DNA of 64,000 nucleotides from a virus (IMGVR_UViG_3300028379_000001:4186-68185); one strand, 5' to 3'. Counted from the first letter of the stretch, positions 3,536 to 29,592 are shown. Made by a program: numbers and translations. Notes: generated by a model not told the origin, from the sequence alone.

Positions 3536-3645
3536 GAGCAGACTCCAAGAACTGCGTCGAACTTCCCGAGCAGCACCAGGAAAGTCAGCATGGCCGCAAT
3601 GGACACGAGCGCACCCGCGATCGGCGCCGCGTAGTTCGGTTTCAT
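3532..3645 (-). CDS. Small membrane protein (MKPNYAAPIAGALVSIAAMLTFLVLLGKFDAVLGVCS)
   Basis: Hand-translated; ATG overlaps the ThyX stop (ATGA). Confidence 0.5.
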   Translation of the reverse strand: MKPNYAAPIAGALVSIAAMLTFLVLLGKFDAVLGVCS

Positions 3646-4967
3646 CGGGCCACCCGCGCGGCCTTCTCGTTCAGCAGCCACTCGACCGGGAAGATCGGCA
3701 GGACCTTGATGCCGACGCCGTCAGAGTCGAATGGAGCAATCAGTGGCGTCTCCCAATCGTCCGACTTCCGTCCGGCCTCTTCGTTCGCGTCGACCCGTTC
3801 CCGGATCGCGCAGTAGCGGTCGGACTTGGCTTTCATGGTGCACTTGTTCGCCGAGTAGCAGACCGGCCGGAAGCTCGCCGCGATCAGCTCATACTGCCAG
3901 CGGTTCGGGTGGTCCTTCGGCAGGTACTCCCGGAACGCCCGGGCCAGCTCGATGAACACCGCGCGCCACTCGAACTGGGCCTGTGTGCAGAGTCGGTTCC
4001 CCGCCATCCGCTTCAAGCTGCCGAGGTCGATGTGCTGGTGGACGCGGGTCAGCACGTTCGTCGGGAGCAGACCCCGCGCGTGCTCGGCGGGCATCCCGTC
4101 CTCGATCAGATAGTTGTAGTTCTCCGCGATCGTCTCGATCGTGTGATCCCACAACGAGCGCCAGTTCTGCGCCTGCGACCGGTTGATGTCCGGATCGACT
4201 CCGTCCGCCTCGCACTGCGCCCGGAACTCCGCGTCCGGAACTGTCCCCTCCAGGGACGGCGGGAGCTTGACCGCGTCGCCCGCGTCCTCCTTGACCGCGA
4301 AGCGCATTGACTCCTGGGCGTAGCCCGCGAGCCGAGTCCGCACGAGCTGGTGCGTGAAGGCACGGGTGACGTTCTCGAACAGGATCGAGACCTGGAACCA
4401 TTCGAGTGGCGCCTGCGACAGGAGCGAAACCGTCGCCGCCTCCCACGCCTCCCGCCGCTCCGCGTCCGAGACGTCCGCCGGGGTCCGGTAGACCTTGCCC
4501 GTGTACATGCCGTTGACCATCGCCATCACGCCCAGCGGGTCCTCCGGGGCGCACGACAGCGTCACGATCGGCTTCTGCGGGTCGGAGTGGGCGGGCGCCG
4601 ACCACATCGCCACGTCGGCCCACTTCTGGACCTCCTTGGTCTGCTCCGGACCGCACAAGTTGCGACTGTGCTTCTGGCCGTCGATCGTCCGGAACCGCTC
4701 CTCGGGCGCCAGGATGATCTCCGCGCAGGCGCAGCCTTCGTTCGGGAACAGGATGTCCACCTCCTCCTGCGTCGGCATCGGCTCGTCGCCCCAGTGCGAC
4801 TGCCAGGTTATCTCGTCGTTCCAGTCGGGGACCGCCGCGATCATGTCCGCGCGGCTCGGCTTCCCGTAGCTTCCGGTCCGGCCGTTCTCCCGCGCTTCGG
4901 CGTACGCTCGGTGCGCCGGGGTGTCCGTGTAGGGGTTCTGGTGCGGCTTGTCGTGCGGTCCAGTCAT
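3642..4967 (-). CDS. thyX: ThyX-like FAD-dependent thymidylate synthase, enlarged and divergent (441 aa)
   Basis: TRAFTHQLVRTRLAGYAQESMRF (RHRx7S motif with H to T), ARGLLPTN, NRLCTQAQFEWR; start ATG 4967. Confidence 0.8.
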   Translation of the reverse strand: MTGPHDKPHQNPYTDTPAHRAYAEARENGRTGSYGKPSRADMIAAVPDWNDEITWQSHWGDEPMPTQEEVDILFPNEGCACAEIILAPEERFRTIDGQKHSRNLCGPEQTKEVQKWADVAMWSAPAHSDPQKPIVTLSCAPEDPLGVMAMVNGMYTGKVYRTPADVSDAERREAWEAATVSLLSQAPLEWFQVSILFENVTRAFTHQLVRTRLAGYAQESMRFAVKEDAGDAVKLPPSLEGTVPDAEFRAQCEADGVDPDINRSQAQNWRSLWDHTIETIAENYNYLIEDGMPAEHARGLLPTNVLTRVHQHIDLGSLKRMAGNRLCTQAQFEWRAVFIELARAFREYLPKDHPNRWQYELIAASFRPVCYSANKCTMKAKSDRYCAIRERVDANEEAGRKSDDWETPLIAPFDSDGVGIKVLPIFPVEWLLNEKAARVAR

Positions 4968-5401
4968 GACTTGCCCTCTCCGATTCCGGCCGGCACCATC
5001 GCGGTTAGAATGGTGATGACCATGTTTGCCAGCTTCCGGTCTGACGTGTTGAGCTTGGTGTCCATGCCCATGATGTTCATGGCGTCGGCGATCATGTCGA
5101 AGCCGAGTTCGTAGCTGGAGCGGATGTTCTCCCCCGCTGCCCGGTCCGTGACGCTCTCCACGAGAGCGGGATGAACCTCCGGGTAGCAGCCCCACCTCGT
5201 GTGGGTCCGTCCGTCCTCCGTGTAGGACTTAACGCCGGGGGCCAACTTGATGTCCTGGGCGCAGAGGCACATGTCCATCTCGGGGACCGCGTGCCCGTTC
5301 TGCAGGGACTCGGGGAGGCCCGCGAGCGGGTTGAAGCCGATGCCATCGTTGGACCAGGCGCGCGCCGTCCGCCTGAATTCGAGCGCGTTGTGGGAACTCA
5401 T
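4964..5401 (-). CDS. Hypothetical protein (145 aa)
   Basis: ORF track; RBS GGAGG; overlaps thyX start. Confidence 0.7.
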   Translation of the reverse strand: MSSHNALEFRRTARAWSNDGIGFNPLAGLPESLQNGHAVPEMDMCLCAQDIKLAPGVKSYTEDGRTHTRWGCYPEVHPALVESVTDRAAGENIRSSYELGFDMIADAMNIMGMDTKLNTSDRKLANMVITILTAMVPAGIGEGKS

Positions 5402-5455
5402 CTTGCCTCCGATTGGTCTTCCGGTAATGCTGGGGAGTTGCGGTATTCTATCCTA

Positions 5456-5695
5456 TTAGTCCTCTGGCTCCCTCCTGCCCCACCGGTCGTGGGCCCAAAA
5501 CCCCGTTACGACCAGCGCGACCAGGGCGAGAAGGCTGAGCCAAAGGTAGCCGTACTGGCCAAAAACCGTGATCGCGAGCCAAGCTAGTCCGCTGACGGCT
5601 TCTCCCATTGGTACTTCTCCATCCATTCCCGTGAGCCAATGTAGCGCCGATCGCGCTGCTTCTCGTGCTCCCAGTTCAGCCGGTACAGCTCCCAC
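5456..5695 (-). CDS. Membrane protein
   Basis: Hydrophobic segments LAWLAITVFG and WLSLLALVALVVTGFW. Confidence 0.5.
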   Translation of the reverse strand: MGAVPAELGAREAARSALHWLTGMDGEVPMGEAVSGLAWLAITVFGQYGYLWLSLLALVALVVTGFWAHDRWGRREPED

Positions 5696-5713
5696 ATGTC
5701 GCAGTGCCGGCAG

Positions 5714-8700
5714 CTAGGCCGCCTCCCCTTCGGGTGGCCCCTCATCCTCGTCCTCCTCTCCTTGGGGGATGACGATGAGGCCCTTGACGGTGAGTGAGAC
5801 GCCGAAGCCGGACCGCTTGAGTCCTTGGGTGATGACGACGTCTTGCATTGGAACGATCTCCTCGACCATCTTTCGGTAGCGGGGGAAGTCCCAGCGGTTG
5901 ATCTTGAGGTACACATCGTCGTCGCCGTCATCGTAGCAGTGGAGCGTGACGGACTTGACGAGGTGCGGGTCTCGGGTCCGAGCCAGGATCTCGTCGACCG
6001 TGTCCCCGCTCCGGGCGCGCTCGTCCTCGATCAGGTCCTTGTACTCGACCTTCCGGACCACGCCCATCCAGATCAGCTGGCAGTCGCGGTCGCGGGGGAT
6101 CTCGTGGGACCGGTGGGTCGGGGTCGGGAGCCCTCGGAAGTCGACCCGACGACGACGGATGCCGTCGCGGATAAAGTCGAGGGTCTTCGCGGTCAGCTCG
6201 ATCGCGAACGGGTCGTCCTGCTCGGCGAACTCCTGGATCTTGGCGGAGGTGGTCGGGCCGACCCCCTTGACCGCTTCGTACGCCACCCAGTCCTCCGCGC
6301 CGTGGGCGTTCTTGAAGTCGATCATCGCCTTGGACATCTTGGCGCCGACGCCGTGGATCTGCACGAGCCCCGCCCGGATGCCGCGTTCGTCGGTCAGGTC
6401 CGGGCTCCAAGTAATCTCCGACAGCTGGGGATCGGGCGGGAGGACGTTGAAGCCGTTCTTTACCGCGTCGTTCAGGAGGCGCGGGCGCCGCTGCTCGCGA
6501 GCCTTCTTGTCGTCGCCGACCTTCTGGAGCTGGGCGGCGTAGAACTCGCGAGGGTAGTGCTGCTTGAGGTACTGGCACCAGAAGCCGAGCATGCTGTAGG
6601 AGATGCAGTGCGCGACGTTGAACGAGTAGGTCGCCGACGTCACCATGAACTTCCAGATCCGATCGGCCAGCTTCCCGTCGATCCCGTGCCCGTTCTTGGC
6701 GCCCTGGATGAACATCTCCTTCATGTTGTTCATGTGCGCCTCGCCGAGCTTCTGCGAGATGGCCCGGCGGATGTCACCGATCCGCTCGACCGGGAACCCG
6801 CCGATGTCGCGGACGATCTGGAGGACCTGCTCCTGATAGATGATCTGGCCGTAGGTCCCTTTCGTGTACTGCCACACGAGCGGGTGCAGGTGATCGGGCT
6901 TCGCCCGGCCGTGCTTGACTTCCATGTACTGCGCGGTCATCCCCGAGAATAGAGGGCCAGGCCGACTAAGAGCATTGATATCAGCAAGGTGCATGAAGTG
7001 GTCCGGAACCACGCCCGCGTTAACCAGCCGAGTGGCCCGACCCTCGAATTGGAAGATACCAACAACATCACCACGGCGAAAAGCATCCATAGTGCGCTGT
7101 TCGTCCAGAGGAACAGTGTAAAGCTCGGCAAGGTCCATCCCAATCATCTCAAGGACGAGGTCGATCATGCCCATCGTGGACAACCCGAGGAAGTCCATCT
7201 TGAGCATGCCCAGATACTCGCCGTCCTTCTTGTCGTAAGCCAGGACGGAACGCTTGTGCCCGTTGATCTCTCGGGTGTAGACGGCGGACGTATCCGAGAT
7301 CGGCGCGTTCGAGAGGACGATGCCGGCGGCGTGCACCGACATGCCGCGCATGTTCCCCTCCAGTAGCGTCGCCTTCATCAAGTCCGGGAACTTGTCGACG
7401 GCGGCCCGCGCGGAGGGGAACATGTCGATCGAGTCCGACAGCGAGTCGTCGGCCCGCGAGTCTCCGCCCGAGCGGTCTAGGACGACACTCTTGACCGCGT
7501 CCTCCGCGTACTTGGGGATGTTGTAGACGCGGGCGACGTCCACCACCGAGTTGCGCCCCTTGTACTTGACGAAGTTTCCGATGTTGGCCACACGATCCGC
7601 GCCCCATCGTCGCACAAGATACTCGCGTACCTCTTCCCGTCGGTTGTCGGCGAAGTCAAGATCAATGTCGGGCAGGTCCATTCGGCTGACGTCGATGAAC
7701 CGCTCGAAGACCATCGTCGGGAACTGAATCGGGTCAACCTCCGTAACCCGTAGCATGTAGAGAACCACGCTAGCGGCAGCAGAGCCACGAGCAGGCCCCA
7801 CCGGGATCGGACGGGGTCGAAGATCCTTCGCCCACCGGACCGCGTCCGCGACCATGAGGAAGTAGTCATTGAAGTCCTTGTCGTCGATGTGCCCCATCTC
7901 ATAATGGAGCTTCTCCACGTACGCCTTCGGGTCCGCCTGCATGCGGGGGTTGGTAGGGAGCCGGTAGCGCCAACCCTCCCGAAGCCATTCCCACAAGGTC
8001 TCCCGCGCCGTCCAGCCGTCTTCCAGCGGGAAGCGGAGCGGTTCGTTCTTGGGGAGCGTCAGGGTGCACCGCTCGGCGATCTCGCTCGTGTTGAGGATCG
8101 CCTGCCATGCGTCCGACGGGCTCAGGCCCGTCGCCATGAGGTCCGCGTACACCTCGTAGTCACTCGTCGGGTACGTCAGCAGGATGTCGTACTCCCAGCC
8201 CGCTTCCACAGAGTCGACCGTCCCGCCCCGGTGCGCGGCGTGGAGGATCTTCTGCATCTCGTTCTGCGAGCCGTAGGGGTAGTGGACGTCAGCGGTCGCG
8301 ACGAGGGGCACGCCGGTTCGACGGCTCAGCTCGGCGAACGCGGGGTTGAGGGTCCGGGCTCGTTCCAGTCCCGGGAACCTCTGCACTTCCAGATAGTACC
8401 CATCCCCAAACAGAGATTGATACTTCCGCACGACCTTCTCGGCATTGGACATGTCGAACGTGGACGCCCGATTCCGGCGCTCCCCGAGACTCTTCCCGCC
8501 CAGGAGGGTGCACGACAAGTGTGAGTCCGCGCAACCAGAAGTCGCGATCAGACCTTCCGCGTGATTCGCGAGCATCGGTCCGTGTACTGTTGGCCATTGG
8601 TAGAACCCTTCCTCCCAGGATTCACCCACCAGTTCGTTGAGGTTGCGGAGACCTTCCGGAGTCTCCGCGATCAGCGTCTGGTGGAACTTCTGCCGCGTCT

Positions 8701-9573: not shown

Positions 9574-10179
9574 CTACGCCTCCTTATGGAGCTGGGACAC
9601 GAGCACCAGGTTGCGCTCGGTCAGGCCGAAGATGAAGTTGGCTCCGACGTGCAGCTTCCACGGCCTGCCGTCCCCGCCCTCGGCGGCGTGGTCGTACTGC
9701 CGCTCCGAGAGCACGTTGCGCCAGGTGTCGATCGCGTACCGGGTCTTGTGCATTAGGCACTCGTTGGCCAGCTGACCCATGTAGTGCGGGTGGATCAGGG
9801 TCACGACCCCGCCCGGCTCCAGCACGCGCTCGATCTCGCGGAGCGCCCGGACGACCGCCCAGTCCGCGAGGTGGTCCAGCGTGTGGTAGATCGCGACTCG
9901 TCCCACAGACTCGGACTCGTACGGGATGCGCCAGCGGGTGCTCTCGGTCGCCATCGCGTCCCACTCGGGGTACTCGATGTTGTCCCAGCCATCGATGATC
10001 TTCTTGCCGGCTCCGAGCTGGATCATGTGTCCGCCGACCATCGGCGCACTCGTCCACTCGATCCGGTCCCGGACCATCGCGATGTCGATGTGGTCCCAGA
10101 CCGACATGGGCTGCGGGAACTCGCGGACTCCCTTGTCGTCCTCGGCCGGAACAGCGTTGTGGTTCATGTAGCGGGTCAT
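9574..10179 (-). CDS. Class I SAM-dependent methyltransferase
   Basis: IQLGAG motif I, YHTLDHL...ALREIERVLEPGGVVTLIHP; start ATG 10179. Confidence 0.8.
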   Translation of the reverse strand: MTRYMNHNAVPAEDDKGVREFPQPMSVWDHIDIAMVRDRIEWTSAPMVGGHMIQLGAGKKIIDGWDNIEYPEWDAMATESTRWRIPYESESVGRVAIYHTLDHLADWAVVRALREIERVLEPGGVVTLIHPHYMGQLANECLMHKTRYAIDTWRNVLSERQYDHAAEGGDGRPWKLHVGANFIFGLTERNLVLVSQLHKEA

Positions 10180-10994: not shown

Positions 10995-11176
10995 GCCTTG
11001 TCTCCCTTCCAGAACGGGCATCGGGTCGTCCCGTTCCGACAGATTACTTTGGTCTTGCTGACCACCCAGTGGACGTGCACCCCGGCCTCCAACTCCTCCA
11101 AGTACTGCTCTTTCAGCTGCGGCAGTCGGTGAGTAATCTTGGCGGTTGCCGGCGTGTACACCCTGGGAAGTCTCAC
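10991..11176 (-). CDS. Hypothetical protein (61 aa)
   Basis: ORF track; 4-nt overlaps on both sides. Confidence 0.6.
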   Translation of the reverse strand: MRLPRVYTPATAKITHRLPQLKEQYLEELEAGVHVHWVVSKTKVICRNGTTRCPFWKGDKA

Positions 11177-11757
11177 TGGACCGTGACCTCCCGCGTGTCG
11201 AGGTCGATCGCGAGCGCATCCGGCAGGACCCGCTCGCCGTTCGCGAGCCGGGGGACGTCCGCTTTGCTGACGTACAGCTTGTAGCTACCGTGGTCGTCGT
11301 TCAGCGGCCACAAGTACGGCATGTCGTCGGGGGTACCGGGGAACTGCTCGCCGTAGTGGTGTTCCGCTTTGCGGAGGAGATTGGAACGATGCGACCGGAG
11401 CACCCACAGGTCATCCAGCCAAGCCGGGCGGGCGACCGGAGCCGTCAGGAGCTGGCCGGGCTCGCTCGGCACCATGCCGTACTCCTGCGCCAGCTCGGCG
11501 AACTTGCCCCAGGTCGTGTCGTTGTGCCCGCGCTCGATCCGCCATTCGTGCGCAACAAAAAGGCCGTACAGGACCAGGGCGGGCTCGTAGCCCTCCCACA
11601 TCCGTACGGCCGGGTGGTTCGCGTATCCGTCGGTCTCGCCACGGAGCACCGACAGGATCTGGATCGTCTCGGCTCGCTGCTTTTCGAGCCGGTCGTTGTC
11701 GAGTGCACGCATAGTTTTGGCGTGCGTCTTGTGCGTGACAAAGGTCTGCATCGTCAT
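11173..11757 (-). CDS. Pyrimidine-dimer DNA glycosylase (T4 EndoV-like / MSMEG_6728-like)
   Basis: MQTF...LDNDRLEKQRAE...GYANHPAVRMWEGY...SHRSNLLRK...PYLWP pattern. Confidence 0.8.
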   Translation of the reverse strand: MTMQTFVTHKTHAKTMRALDNDRLEKQRAETIQILSVLRGETDGYANHPAVRMWEGYEPALVLYGLFVAHEWRIERGHNDTTWGKFAELAQEYGMVPSEPGQLLTAPVARPAWLDDLWVLRSHRSNLLRKAEHHYGEQFPGTPDDMPYLWPLNDDHGSYKLYVSKADVPRLANGERVLPDALAIDLDTREVTVQ

Positions 11758-11902
11758 CCTCCGATAAGAACTAGGCTACCGGCCGGGCCGGGGCTTCCGG
11801 CACCCGGCCCGACCGATCGCCTAGCGTGAGCCTAGTCGGTGACGCTCACGGCGTCTACCCATCAGGCTACCGTTCGCCGCGCGAGCGACGCCGTTCGGGT
11901 GA

Positions 11903-25594: not shown

Positions 25595-25933
25595 TCAGGA
25601 GAGCAAGCTCTCCATGTAGATCACCTCTGCCTCGTCGCACTTCTCCTTGAGCTTGTGCGTCCGCTCCGCGCCGAGCGCGCGCTCCACGGTCTTCCAGACC
25701 TGGGTCAGGCTCCCTCCGTTCTCGTACAGGTAGAGCACTCCGTGCTCCAGGATGTCGGCCTTGTTCCGAGATGGCGCCCCGGTGATCCCGCGCAGGTTCT
25801 TCGCGGGCGCCCCCTTCGAGTGGCGGAGACCGGTCGTGATCTCGACGCACACCGCCGACAGGAGCCGCACGAAGTTCATCTGCATCGTGAGGTCGCCCCG
25901 CAGGTCGATTCGGCCGTCCTCGTGGAACTTCAT
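25595..25933 (-). CDS. Hypothetical protein (112 aa)
   Basis: ORF track; RBS GAGGAG. Confidence 0.7.
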   Translation of the reverse strand: MKFHEDGRIDLRGDLTMQMNFVRLLSAVCVEITTGLRHSKGAPAKNLRGITGAPSRNKADILEHGVLYLYENGGSLTQVWKTVERALGAERTHKLKEKCDEAEVIYMESLLS

Positions 25934-26099: not shown

Positions 26100-27247
26100 C
26101 TACCCCTCCGCTACGCCGCTGTCCTCGGCGCACTGGTCGTGAAGCTTTCCATGCTCCCCGTAGTCGATCAGGTCCCCGTCGACCGCCGAGCCCGGCATGT
26201 CGCAGGCGTCGCACTTATCGGCCATCAGCCCTCCTCCTGCCAGTTCCCCGCGCCATGCTGGGAGTTCATGAACTCCGCCATCACCTTCCGCGCGTCCTCG
26301 CGCCTCACGGCCTCCCCCTGGAAGTAGTCCGACGACCAGCGGCCATCCTTTCCTCGCACCCGGAGGTAGAACTTGTGGACCTCCATCAGACCAGCTCCTT
26401 GCGCACGGGGTCCGTCCCTTGGAGCGAGGGGCAGGACGGGTCGCAGTAGAACCCGGCCGGGGCTCCGCAGCCATCCTCGCAGTCGATCGAGAACATCTCG
26501 CAGTCCTCGTCCGGCACCTTCACGTACTTCGCGCCCGGCATATCGGCCGGGGTCGGCGAGTCCGACATCAGACAGTCCTCTCCGTTGCGTAGCCAAGCCG
26601 GATAAGCCAGGGGCCGATCGTCGCGTGGATCTTCGCGCGGGAGACCTCGGCGATCGACCCCGGATCGGGGTACTCCCCGTCCATCGACGCGACCTGGTAC
26701 CGATCCTCCTCGCCCATCCGGGCCACGACGAACGGGAGTGGTCCGGTCGAGAGCTGCGTGAAGCACGCCATGCCGGCCTCGATCCCGGTATACATCGGAA
26801 CCGTCAGCGTCGGCCGGTCCTCCGTTCCGAACGCCTCGATCGAGAAGTACAGGTCCAGCAGGAGCGCAAGCTCCATCACGTCCTCGTCCGGGTCCGCGAA
26901 GTTCCGCAGCTTCGCGACGGGCCGCCCGTCGACCCATTCCCACGGACCGCCGTCGAACGTTCCGTCGCCCATCGTCGGCGCGGTTCCGTACCCGCCGTAC
27001 AGCTCAAACTTCGTCCAGTCGACGTCGATCATCAGCCCTCATCCTTCCGTCGGATCTTCGCGATCTCGCGCGCCGGTCCGGCGAACATCACCGTCGGCCA
27101 TCCCCCGCCCGTGGCTCCGGCAGGAGCCGAAACGGACCAGGAGACCTCACGCGGGTCCGCGCCCGCTTCGGCGAGGTAGACCGCTACGGCGGTCTCGATC
27201 TTTTCCCCCGCGTCGACCACGACAGGGACATTCACAGACTCGAACAT
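26100..27247 (-). other. Array of five early genes: 26100-26225, 26225-26386, 26386-26568 (Cys-rich), 26568-27032, 27032-27247
   Basis: All linked by TGATG stop/start overlaps; starts re-called by hand. Confidence 0.7.
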
Positions 27248-27389
27248 GGTTCTCCTAAGGTCGGAGGGCTCGCAGGAATTTCGGCAATAGGTTCGTACGC
27301 TAAGGCGCGCAGACTCCTGTCCCCTGACGGGTCCAGTCGTCTCTAAGGGAGGTCTTAAGCCCTAGCGGCGCGGGTGCGCCGCCGGGGGT

Positions 27390-27575
27390 CTAGCGGGGGA
27401 CGACTCGGGTGTAGTGGCGAGGAACCTCGCCGTAGGCGGTTCGGAGGACGACGACCGGGCCGGTCGGCCGGTGGCGACCTTCGAGGCGCACGACGGTCCC
27501 GACGACCTTCGGACCGGCACCGACGATCTCGACGGGACGGCCGACGTAGAACTTCGAGGTAATTCCGGAAAACAT
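27390..27575 (-). CDS. 61-aa early protein, SH3-barrel-like pattern (MFSGITSKFYVGRPVEIVG...)
   Basis: ATG 27575 after TAAGGAG; hairpin GCGGCGC-GGGT-GCGCCGC (27365-82) follows the stop. Confidence 0.7.
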   Translation of the reverse strand: MFSGITSKFYVGRPVEIVGAGPKVVGTVVRLEGRHRPTGPVVVLRTAYGEVPRHYTRVVPR

Positions 27576-27583
27576 GGGTCTCC

Positions 27584-27781
27584 TTAGGACGTAGCGGCGC
27601 GGAGTCGAGAGGTAATCGGGGAGACCTCTTCGGCGGTTTCGACGCCGAATTCGAGGAGGGTCGCCCCGGCCGCCGTAGAGACGGCGGACCAATCGTAGTA
27701 GAGGAACCCGAGGATTCGGGAGAGGTACCGAGCGATCTCGACGTCCCCGACGACCGGGACGGAGAAGTAGAAGGTAAGGAT
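27584..27781 (-). CDS. 65-aa early protein with predicted ATC start
   Basis: TAAGGAG-6 nt-ATC; (M)LTFYFSVPVVGDVEIARYLSRILGFLYYDW...RAATS; GC3-rich; no in-frame ATG/GTG/TTG; absent from ORF track. Confidence 0.6.
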   Translation of the reverse strand: MLTFYFSVPVVGDVEIARYLSRILGFLYYDWSAVSTAAGATLLEFGVETAEEVSPITSRLRAATS

Positions 27782-27791
27782 AGCGGTCTCC

Positions 27792-27875
27792 TTAGGACGG
27801 ACGGTCGGCGATCCGACCGACTACGTAGAGGATCGAGAAGAGGACGACGAACGTTACGATCGGCGCGAAAATTAT
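27792..27875 (-). CDS. 27-aa single-TM early protein with predicted ATA (or ATT) start
   Basis: TAAGGGGAGCC-ATA; (M)IFAPIVTFVVLFSILYVVGRIADRPS; its TAA lies within the next RBS. Confidence 0.55.
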   Translation of the reverse strand: MIFAPIVTFVVLFSILYVVGRIADRPS

Positions 27876-27913
27876 GGCTCCCCTTAGGACGGAGCGGGAC
27901 GGATTTCTACGGA

Positions 27914-28237
27914 CTACCAGCAGAAGCAGGTTCGGGGGACGTAGACCTTCATCCCGCAACCGGGGCACGGCGTCGCCCGGTCGATTCGGCGTTCGATCGA
28001 CTCGGCCCGCTTCGTCGCCGCCGACTTAGGCTTAGGCTTAAAGCGGATCGGAGCCCCGATAGGGGTCCCGTAGAAGCCGGACGACCGGACCCGGAAATCG
28101 ACGTCGGGACGAGTCCCCGCCGAGGACGTCGATCCGACGTTCCCCTTCGAGAATCCTCCCCCGGTACGGGGCGAGGCGACGATCTTTCGAGTCCCGTTCG
28201 GGACGAAACCCGGAGCGTTCTCGTATCCCTCGATGAT
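27914..28237 (-). CDS. 107-aa first early protein with C-terminal CPGC...CFC, predicted ATC start
   Basis: TAGGGAGAGCC-ATC; (M)IEGYENAPGFVPNGTRK...TPCPGCGMKVYVPRTCFCW; absent from ORF track. Confidence 0.65.
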   Translation of the reverse strand: MIEGYENAPGFVPNGTRKIVASPRTGGGFSKGNVGSTSSAGTRPDVDFRVRSSGFYGTPIGAPIRFKPKPKSAATKRAESIERRIDRATPCPGCGMKVYVPRTCFCW

Positions 28238-28253
28238 GGCTCTCCCTAATCGG

Positions 28254-28296
28254 CGGCCTCCCGGCCGATCCTCCGAACCGGCCTCCCGGCCGATCC
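28254..28296. repeat. 18-bp direct repeat CGGCCTCCCGGCCGATCC x2 in the 5' leader of the first early gene
   Basis: Copies at 28254-28271 and 28279-28296. Confidence 0.85.
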
Positions 28297-28312
28297 GCTT
28301 CGTTCCGTTCCT

Positions 28313-28616
28313 AGCTTAGCGGTAGACGCTTCCGGCGTCTACCCCCTCTTTCGAGGGCCGACCGGCGAGCCGGTCCCGGAGGGAGTCTAGCCTATCGACT
28401 CCCTCGGCGTCTAGCGGCTCCCGTTCCGTCCGGCGACCCTAGTTCGCCGAAGATTCCCGGGATACGACCCCTTAGGGGGCCGAACCGCTACCGAGAGGAT
28501 CGTACCCTATCCGCGCTAGTCGCGTCTAGGGGGCTCGTCCCCCGCCCCCGACCGGCCCCTTAGCGGGTCCGTTCCTCGGCGACGGGGATAACCTTACGGG
28601 ACGCTACCGGCGTCTA
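28313..28616 (-). promoter_or_regulatory. Cluster of three GACGC-N5-GCGTC sites with leftward early promoters
   Basis: 28325-39 (TAGACG-17-TAAGCT, perfect GGTAGACGC/GCGTCTACC inverted repeat); 28397-411 (one mismatch, TAGACG-18-TAGACT); 28600-14. Confidence 0.75.
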
Positions 28617-28639
28617 CCTAGAACTTTCTTATCGCCGCT

Positions 28640-29290
28640 GGTCCGCTGGCGAGTCGCGACCTCGGCTCGCGCGGGATCGTTTTCCGCGCGCCAGGGCGCG
28701 TTGTGCGCGCGCGGTTCCTCCCCTGGCTTCGGCGGAGGCGTACGCCCGCCTCCGAGGACGAGGTACCGCGCGGGATTCCATTGTCGCGGGGCATGCGCGC
28801 GGATCCAATTCCGCGCGTCGCACCCGCTCGCCCGCGCGAGAAGCGGAACCGGGCGGGATTCTGTTGTCGCGACGTACGCGCCCGGTGCCTATGTAGTCGC
28901 GCGTATGCCCGCCCGCCCGTAGAGACGAACCGCGCGCGGTTCCTTTGGTCGCGTACGGAAAAGGGGGAGGGGGAGGGGCTTTAGGGAGGGGGAGGGGGAG
29001 ACGCGATGCGGCCGCGCGGGGGTATCGCGCGCGTCAATCGCGCACAATCGCAGGCGCCCGCGAACGGCGGCGCGCCCGCACCACCAGATCCCTTGGGAGG
29101 GATACTGGGTGGGTCAGTTTAAGTATCCCTGTGCGAGCGCGGCGAGCCTGCGGGGCGCGCGATCGGCGCAGAGTATCTGCGCCGCTACCGCCCGTAACAT
29201 GAACCAGCCCCGCAGCTCGGAGGGAGACTGCGGGGCTAGCCCAGCGGCGACAGGTCTCGGGCCGGAAGTCCCTCAAACGATCCGTCGCGG
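28640..29290. other. Non-coding CGCG-rich block with palindrome, repeats and G-run tract; candidate genome terminus/packaging region
   Basis: GAACCGCGCGCGGTTC palindrome 28927-42; 19/22 repeat 28767-88/28850-71; G-runs 28963-28998. Confidence 0.5.
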
Positions 29291-29304
29291 TCTACTCTAC
29301 CTGA

Positions 29305-29592
29305 TCAGCCGACAGCGGTCGAGCTGGCACCGCCCTTCTCACCAGGCTTGACGCGCCACTGGTGCTTGGCCGCGTAGGACGCAGCGAAGCCGACCAGAGC
29401 GGGCACGAGCGGCAGGATGAACCACTCCAGGGCGTCCGGAACCGCCTCCAGCAGCAGCGCGTTGTTGTCGGCCGTCGAGGCGTCCGTGATCGCGAGCAGG
29501 ACCACAGCCGAGAGGTAGAACCCGAGGACTCCGAGCTTGGTCTTCGGCTCCACCTTCGACGTGTCGGCGGGCTCGGGATTGATCGTGGTCAT
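29305..29592 (-). CDS. Holin
   Basis: Two TM segments; directly downstream of the endolysin; ATG 29592 after AGGAG. Confidence 0.75.
   Translation of the reverse strand: MTTINPEPADTSKVEPKTKLGVLGFYLSAVVLLAITDASTADNNALLLEAVPDALEWFILPLVPALVGFAASYAAKHQWRVKPGEKGGASSTAVG

Follow-up and report, generated by a model that had tools for sequence, protein, structure and literature searches.

The stretch of DNA analysed here (the window) is 64,000 nt long and corresponds to bases 4186–68185 of one 68,185-bp metagenomic viral contig; coordinates refer to the window throughout. Positions 27584–28237 contain three apparent genes that begin with neither ATG, GTG nor TTG, which raises the question of whether these are real genes, where their translation begins, and what became of their canonical start codons. 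The original prediction was that three hidden genes start here at ATC or ATA, and that selection against TG was strong enough to have replaced the start codons.

Organization of the g1–g6 region

All coding-like ORFs of the phage genome are on the minus strand, to which the window features described below also belong. In this orientation the structural genes are followed by an endolysin gene (30389–29604; PHROG 1512, E=2.6e-40, with Peptidase_M15_4 and PG_binding_1 domains), a holin-like gene, a non-coding gap of ~1 kb, and then genes g1 to g6. Three ORFs of 107, 27 and 65 aa do fill 27584–28237. The proposed start of g1 (27914–28237; 107 aa) is ATC at 28237, or a second ATC at 28234, and its stop is TAG (27916–27914). 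g2 (27792–27875) codes for a 27-aa single-TM peptide with a proposed start at ATA 27875, although the next codon, ATT, could also serve, and g3 (27584–27781) codes for a 65-aa orphan with a proposed start at ATC 27781. The last two codons of both g2 and g3 are TCC-TAA, the TAA falling within the SD of the following gene (27794–27792 in the g3 SD, and 27586–27584 in the g4 SD), just as had been described. The TAG of g1 is followed by nine more in-frame sense codons leading to a TCC-TAA within the g2 SD (27884–27916); these codons, which end like g2 and g3, may be what is left of a formerly longer g1, or they may extend it by read-through.

g4 (27390–27575; 61 aa) starts with ATG behind the same CGTCCTAAGGAGA cassette, lies at the downstream edge of the TG purge described below, and was also called, again at 61 aa, when the phage was assembled independently. 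g5 (27032–27247; 71 aa) also has an ATG start; its TG content is normal but sense-strand CA is still purged, and the end of the CA purge, at 26772, falls within g6 (27032–26571).

Upstream of g1 there is a leader (28238–28690) that has neither TG nor CA, shows an excess of TA (odds 2.2), and contains promoter-like TAGACG/GACGC-N5-GCGTC motifs. The proximal promoter-like element, TAGACG-N17-TAAGCT at 28313–28341, was read by eye and is ~75 nt upstream of the g1 ATC; the TAGACG-N17-TAGATT/TAAGCT geometry recurs in a related contig (L063) at 9648–9676 and 11347–11375. A generic scan of the region for sigma-70 promoters and terminators found no promoter and nothing useful. The g1 5' UTR contains two copies of an 18-nt tandem repeat, GGATCGGCCGGGAGGCCG (28251–28297), each of which can form a CGGCC-GGGA-GGCCG hairpin, and an Rfam search of the leader returned a sub-threshold chance match only. 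In the upstream half of the gap (28940–29000) are poly-C tracts, CTCCCCCTCCCCCTCCC and CCCCTCCCCCTCCCCC, together with the motif CCAAAGGAACCGCGCG; a G-rich counterpart of the tracts with two copies of the CCAAAGGAACCGCGCG motif is present at L063:9190–9420, and similar repeats are at L061:1–70. Possible roles for this part of the gap are as a replication or packaging signal (an origin or packaging site) or in the binding of a regulator.

The first 127 nt of the contig are identical to its last 127 nt, which is most likely the k=127 overlap that an assembler leaves when a genome is circular or permuted; the IMG/VR class of the record is complete with direct terminal repeats (DTR). An identical g6 protein is carried by four contigs of 68.0–68.2 kb.

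g1, g2 and g3 have the properties of genes

The ribosome binding strings that had been reported are exact: TAGGGAGAGCC-ATC for g1, TAAGGGGAGCC-ATA for g2 and TAAGGAGACCGCT-ATC for g3, compared with TAAGGAGACCC-ATG for g4 (27575) and TTAGGAGAACC-ATG for g5 (27247). The SD cassette CGTCCTAAGGRGA that precedes g1, g2 and g3 is also found before the ATG gene g4, and the spacers following GGAG are 4 nt (g1), 2–4 nt (g2) and 6 nt (g3). SD strengths of −7.4 to −8.2 kcal/mol are like those of g4 and g5 and ordinary for the genome, with an equal or weaker SD present in only 12–16% of its genes when the best-SD start is taken for each gene. We therefore reject the idea that a strong SD offsets a weak start codon, the SDs being average, and for the same reason output from AUH codons may be very low.

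Coding potential was scored with a codon log-odds model trained on 18 long ORFs of the genome. The scores per codon for g1, g2 and g3 are 0.24, 0.40 and 0.42, positive in the proposed frame only, and those of the ATG neighbours g4 and g5 are 0.31 and 0.34. Each of the three ORFs is thus supported independently of its start codon, in the case of g3 by the coding score and the cassette only. The hidden genes are very probably real, with g1 being conserved and g2 having ATG-started counterparts; it is very likely that g1 and g2 are real genes whose N-termini coincide with the ATC and ATA, and probable that g3 is a real gene with an ATC start.

Pfam and PHROGs searches with g1 to g6 identified no family, the exceptions being weak PHROG matches of unknown function (E=0.024) for g4 and for a 112-aa ORF at 25598–25933. 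g1 has an N-terminal FVPNGTRKI motif and a C-terminal CPGCGMKVYVPRTCFCW Cys knuckle. Its predicted structure is mostly disordered (pLDDT 61.5), with the conserved linear motif in a disordered N-terminal half, a helix at residues 73–87, and the CxxC-x9-CxC knuckle, which is replaced by a basic tail in three homologues. g1 may bind Zn, judging only from the CxxC...CxC arrangement, and from gene position g1, g2 and g3 are plausible candidates for anti-defence or host-takeover roles.

No canonical start codon is available

The claim that these genes have no usable ATG, GTG or TTG start holds. The first in-frame canonical codon of g1 is Met96, and the g3 frame has none. The only canonical codon in the g2 frame is GTG 27968, which is 31 codons upstream and inside g1; it has no SD, and the 31-codon extension scores −0.64 per codon, so we do not regard it as the g2 start. 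A survey of 114 coding-like ORFs across the genome found g1 and g3 to be the only ones for which no canonical codon could serve as the start (g2 falls below its size filter), and in an SD scan of the genome every other SD+ATH frame had a canonical start within it or shortly behind it. That Ile codons should by chance occupy the appropriate position after each of the three SDs has a probability of ~1e-3; ATA accounts for just 7 of the 507 Ile codons in the genome.

Homologues were sought in order to place the N-termini. A word-indexed search identified P0001, a g1 homologue of 102 aa with 50% identity (E=1e-16) whose last 20 residues are identical to those of g1. When 1.84 billion representatives were searched exhaustively with a profile, the full-length homologues P0002 and P0007 came to light, as well as P0005, P0006, P0008, P0009 and P0010, which share the N-terminal (D)FVPNGxRKIRA motif. 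All eight homologues begin with Met, 4–19 residues ahead of the FVPNGxRKIRA motif, whereas the window has ATC there, 10 aa from FVPNG. The DNA could be read for seven of them, and the start codon is ATG in six and GTG in one, each behind an SD.

g2 aligns from N- to C-terminus with a 31-aa ATG-started peptide encoded at L063 10533–10628 (z=5.1, 0/500 shuffles), the two reading IIFAP...IADRPS and MAYAP...YADRTFGRR respectively, which places I1 of g2 opposite M1 of that peptide. A second counterpart in the alignments is a 27-aa ATG ORF, not called as a gene, at L061 925–1008 (z=4.1–4.9), which sits behind gTAAGGGGAccacc, the window equivalent being cTAAGGGGAgcc; both counterparts are small membrane peptides. 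A conserved GGGCCATAAA element, preceded by T(C/A)GGAC-N15, follows the g1 homologue in intergenic DNA (L061:878–887 and L063:10366–10375) and resembles GGAGCCATAAT at the g2 start. Its frame matches that of the following ATG in L061 but not in L063, and part of the GGGCCATAAA/GGAGCCATAAT similarity may represent a cis element rather than a start. No g3 homologue was found in any search, including the ESM Atlas.

For g1 and g2, then, the proposed start aligns with the homologue Met at SD spacing, a comparison for which g3 has no homologue, and no canonical codon is able to give the conserved N-terminus. The g1 and g2 starts have the same CC-AUN context as those of g4 and g5. The only sense-strand CAs left between 28639 and 27577 are those in gcCAtCAtc at the g1 start and gcCAta at the g2 start, and that they persist where almost all others have gone suggests a functional constraint on them.

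No ATH start is seen in the seven g1 homologues or the two g2 homologues. A database of called proteins cannot include homologues with ATH starts, and since all the relatives came from such databases, a contrast in which only this phage uses ATH is a biased one. The expectation that homologues in phages without the purge start with ATG is borne out to the extent that genes keeping TG start with ATG or GTG, subject to the same bias. DNA-level scans found no further relatives: there was nothing from blastn of 26500–29500 and tblastn of g1, g3 and g6 against phage GenBank records, from scans of IMG/VR, JGI metagenomes and GTDB genomes with g1 or a g1+P0001 alignment, or from exact-pattern scans with the third base of the start codon left free. 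IMG/VR loci anchored on the endolysin were rejected as relatives, being non-syntenic and without the purge.

CA and TG are purged from the early region

The original prediction spoke of a purge of TG. The local depletion of TG is real, but it is the CA/TG step that is purged and not TG alone. From ~28690 to 27577 the sense strand is almost without TG or CA, and every avoidable TG is gone from 1.06 kb. In this stretch the odds are 0.04–0.06 for CA and 0–0.18 for TG, and over the purged region as a whole those for CA are 0.04–0.22; the remaining genome has values of 0.92 (CA) and 0.97 (TG), so that a sequence common elsewhere in the genome is depleted locally. A skew in base composition can be rejected as the cause of CA loss, since AC, CC and AA are normal; TA is raised.

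Expectations for g1, g2 and g3 were obtained by fixing the amino acids and drawing codons from genome usage. TG occurs 7 times versus ~21.5 expected and CA once versus ~22. The seven TGs are those of Cys (4), Trp (2) and Met (1) codons, the minimum possible, and CTG, GTG and TTG are each used zero times although genome-wide CTG provides 41% of Leu and GTG 29% of Val codons. A codon beginning with A is preceded by C at 2 of 41 junctions, one of them a concatenation artefact, compared with 45% genome-wide, and the 199 aa of the three products include no His or Gln (P=1e-5).

The full sense-strand CA purge extends over 26772–28639 and is longer than that of TG, which is back to normal from g5 on while CA remains low down to 26772. 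It ends abruptly inside g6: codons 1–87 contain no CA, where 8.6 are expected, and no His or Gln, whereas codons 88–154 contain six CAs and three His+Gln residues. An edge that coincides with no gene or transcript border hints at a distance-based cause acting at the DNA level or at a recombination joint.

The purge is shared by related phages

A set of related contigs (L061, L063/L064 and L065–L069) shares the layout of tail genes, lysin, holin, a gap of 1–1.5 kb, a g1 homologue and small early genes; one contig carries a WhiB gene, a hint that the hosts are actinobacteria. In all eight lineages, the window and seven related, neither TG nor CA occurs in the leader that precedes g1 or its homologue, and TA is over-represented there. 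Loss of sense-strand CA is the more widely conserved part of the purge and runs further than that of TG. In L061 and L063, sense CA is nearly absent for 1.75 and 2.5 kb respectively (odds 0.16–0.17) while TG is normal or raised (1.13–1.19), which shows the purge to be strand-specific, with the template strand being the one without TG.

The g1 homologues of L066–L069 have observed/forced TG counts of 2/2, 7/6, 2/2 and 10/9, and have kept ATG or GTG. The window is thus the extreme end of a continuum in which a full synonymous TG purge is common in the family and start-codon TG is lost only here. As four equally TG-purged lineages keep ATG or GTG, the purge permits the loss of start codons and does not force it. 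The proposal that selection against TG replaced the start codons is accordingly well supported as a permissive cause, but such selection was not sufficient, given the starts of L066–L069 and the ATG codons kept by g4 and g5.

A separate instance of depletion was encountered in L053:1–10595 (IMGVR_UViG_3300011115_000480), an unrelated contig of 47% GC found via its endolysin. TG/CA depletion is contig-wide, with a mean of ~29 per 400 nt versus ~50 in its peers and a minimum of 7, TA and CG are raised, and there is a gap in the depletion at ~5200–6000.

Proposed initiation at AUC and AUA and its alternatives

The explanation that we favour, by a little over an even chance for all its parts taken jointly, is that g1, g2 and g3 are the first three genes of an early operon that follows the lysis cassette and a promoter leader of ~1 kb, that they are real and translated from AUC, AUA and AUC respectively, and that their canonical starts were lost through an extreme form of the family-wide CA/TG purge. 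The ORFs, the purge and the homologues with their Met starts are observed directly; initiation at the ATC/ATA codons and the role of the purge as the cause of the change are inferred. Initiator fMet-tRNA would pair with the first two bases of AUC or AUA, with the ribosome placed by the CGTCCTAAGGRGA cassette and its 4–6 nt spacer as for the ATG genes g4 and g5, and at g2 and g3 ribosomes terminating just upstream (at stops 38 and 10 nt away) probably also help. The purge would cover the early promoter leader and the first early genes, and the TG of the start codons, replaceable at a cost in efficiency, would have been lost too.

Precedents make a regulatory origin worth considering, in which the genes are real, ATH was selected because it limits output or ties it to IF3 or growth state (infC, pcnB and Deinococcus dnaA being examples), and the TG purge is coincidental. 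Known AUH starts are regulatory (PMC2830850; 10.1101/063800), nutrient state and ppGpp affect non-AUG mRNAs differentially (PMC5499595), and the four TG-purged relatives with ATG or GTG indicate that the purge does not suffice. We nevertheless think it unlikely, since three adjacent genes have changed together, exactly in the segment without other avoidable TGs, and ATH is found in none of the seven g1 homologues and neither of the two g2 homologues. It is also unlikely that the lineage is losing g1, g2 and g3, with destroyed starts and silent or nearly silent relics, even though AUH codons initiate in E. coli at only 1–2% of the AUG level (10.1101/063800), g3 is an orphan and none of the SDs is strong. 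All three frames are intact with their SD cassettes and coding bias, g1 retains the family motif and a C-terminus of 20 residues identical in a homologue that is only 50% identical overall, CAs are retained at the start sites, and codon choice still avoids CA at junctions, implying continuing selection on an open frame.

Translation beginning elsewhere, at GTG 27968 for g2, at a near-cognate ATC at 28294 for g1, or purely by termination-reinitiation at g2 and g3, seems to us improbable. The GTG is in frame and the g2 and g3 starts are close to the upstream stops, but the poorly scoring extension from the GTG overlaps the conserved Cys knuckle of g1, the homologue Met aligns with the g2 ATA, g1 has no translated ORF upstream from which reinitiation could occur, and ATC 28294 has no SD. 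A similarly low probability attaches to the idea that g2, g3 or both are chance open frames in a compositionally odd leader, with only g1 real: both are short, searches for g3 homologues came up empty, that of the ESM Atlas included, and a TGA-free, stop-poor frame arises more easily by chance in purged DNA. However, TA, and with it TAA and TAG, is enriched and yet the frames are open, the coding score is positive in frame only, an identical stop-in-SD cassette links g2, g3 and g4, and g2 has counterparts in two lineages. Assembly or base-calling errors at the start codons are very hard to credit, although the genome is a metagenome assembly. They would be needed at three separate sites, the purge is systematic and codon-aware, and an independent 68,038-bp assembly of the same phage, with identical g4, g5 and g6 products, likewise has 1.73 kb uncalled across g1, g2 and g3, which argues against a one-off assembly error.

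Possible causes of the purge

Our leading guess is that a host or phage activity reads CA/TG on the first-used (incoming) DNA or on early transcripts. The defence effector CmdT provides an example of a dinucleotide being read on mRNA (10.1101/2024.02.24.581662). A second candidate is modification by the phage of its own T in a TG context; neither promoters nor template strand would then carry the mark, in line with the strand asymmetry. Phage hypermodification is context-specific (PMC8989533) and one phage T-dioxygenase prefers NTG (PMC13229309). Searches of the genome gave no match to ParB (ParB_N) or TGT, and none to Tet_JBP, the last a weak negative as the search controls were silent; neither a T-dioxygenase/ParB pair nor 5-HMUDK or a related pathway, as would mark TG-context thymidine hypermodification, was seen. 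In the suspected modification operon the only Pfam families are Pyr_excise, Thy1 (ThyX) and AAA_24, the remainder being unknowns.

The ThyX gene (3645–5228) is an oversized ORF of 528 aa with the Thy1 domain only at residues 260–437, and an 'EndoV-like' gene (11176–11775) is a Pyr_excise pyrimidine-dimer glycosylase (E=1e-17); the neighbouring proteins of 374 and 211 aa have no Pfam family.

The other two candidates are a requirement for a leader and antisense strand that are free of NTG and hence of start codons, and a context-specific C-to-T mutation, which would explain ATA and not ATC. The change from ATG to ATC is a transversion, and therefore a simple C-to-T or G-to-A process is no explanation for it. 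The defence effector CmdT provides an example of a dinucleotide being read on mRNA (10.1101/2024.02.24.581662).

Discussion

AUC, AUU and AUA starts have been described as confined to rare cases (PMC9094748). In bacteria they include AUU in E. coli infC and pcnB, and ATC in dnaA and ATA in infC of Deinococcus (PMC2830850, 10.1101/063800, PMC5499595), with the ATC-initiated DnaA of Deinococcus deserti verified by N-terminal proteomics (PMC2830850). Initiation at AUA, AUC and AUU in E. coli has been put at 1–2% of AUG (10.1101/063800), and in vitro an AUA mRNA with an optimised initiation region behaves in an AUG-like manner (PMC5499595). The resemblance of g1, g2 and g3 to these genes lies in a near-cognate codon behind an SD, readable by initiator tRNA, missed by gene callers and recognised through the N-termini of homologues. 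The bacterial examples are single and usually autoregulated housekeeping genes, whereas here there are three consecutive phage early genes with starts predicted from sequence, and unlike in the known AUH genes the change falls in a segment from which every avoidable TG has been removed.

The region also resembles the first-step-transfer/pre-early region of T5 in being an early block of 1–3 kb with its own promoters (here putative), small orphan proteins and DNA lacking sequences common elsewhere in the genome. It differs in that the host is probably actinobacterial with high GC, and the purge is strand-specific inside the genes of two relatives (L061 and L063). With phages that modify T in a TG context, through the 5-hmdU pathway (PMC8989533) or the NTG-preferring, ParB-dependent T-dioxygenase 5mYOX176 (PMC13229309), the likeness is that a T standing in TG can be marked by a phage enzyme; the leader and a template strand lacking TG would escape the mark, in keeping with the asymmetry in L061 and L063, although those phages differ from this one in the enzymes for which we found no match (ParB, TGT and, with silent controls, Tet_JBP). 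CmdTAC is an anti-phage ADP-ribosyltransferase system that marks GA in single-stranded mRNA (10.1101/2024.02.24.581662), and an effector of this type, reading a dinucleotide on RNA, is the kind of pressure that could purge sense-strand CA. It reads GA rather than CA, however, and its authors judged escape by motif loss implausible.

A broader proposal, which we hold tentatively and at somewhat less than an even chance, is that this family of phages, probably of actinobacteria, keeps its leader free of CA/TG on both strands and the first 1.5–2.5 kb of early genes free of sense CA, without His or Gln, because something reads the dinucleotide on the first-used DNA or transcripts, and that here the pressure sufficed to turn three consecutive starts into functioning AUC, AUA and AUC codons. 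If true, this would be the first case of dinucleotide avoidance dictating the identity of start codons. Selection against CA/TG would then outweigh both canonical start codons and two amino acids, which gives a measure of its strength. If the codons do initiate, the locus is a natural operon with three adjacent genes on AUC/AUA and a test bed for the tolerance of near-cognate initiation, and phage early genes, where anti-defence functions concentrate, can escape gene callers.
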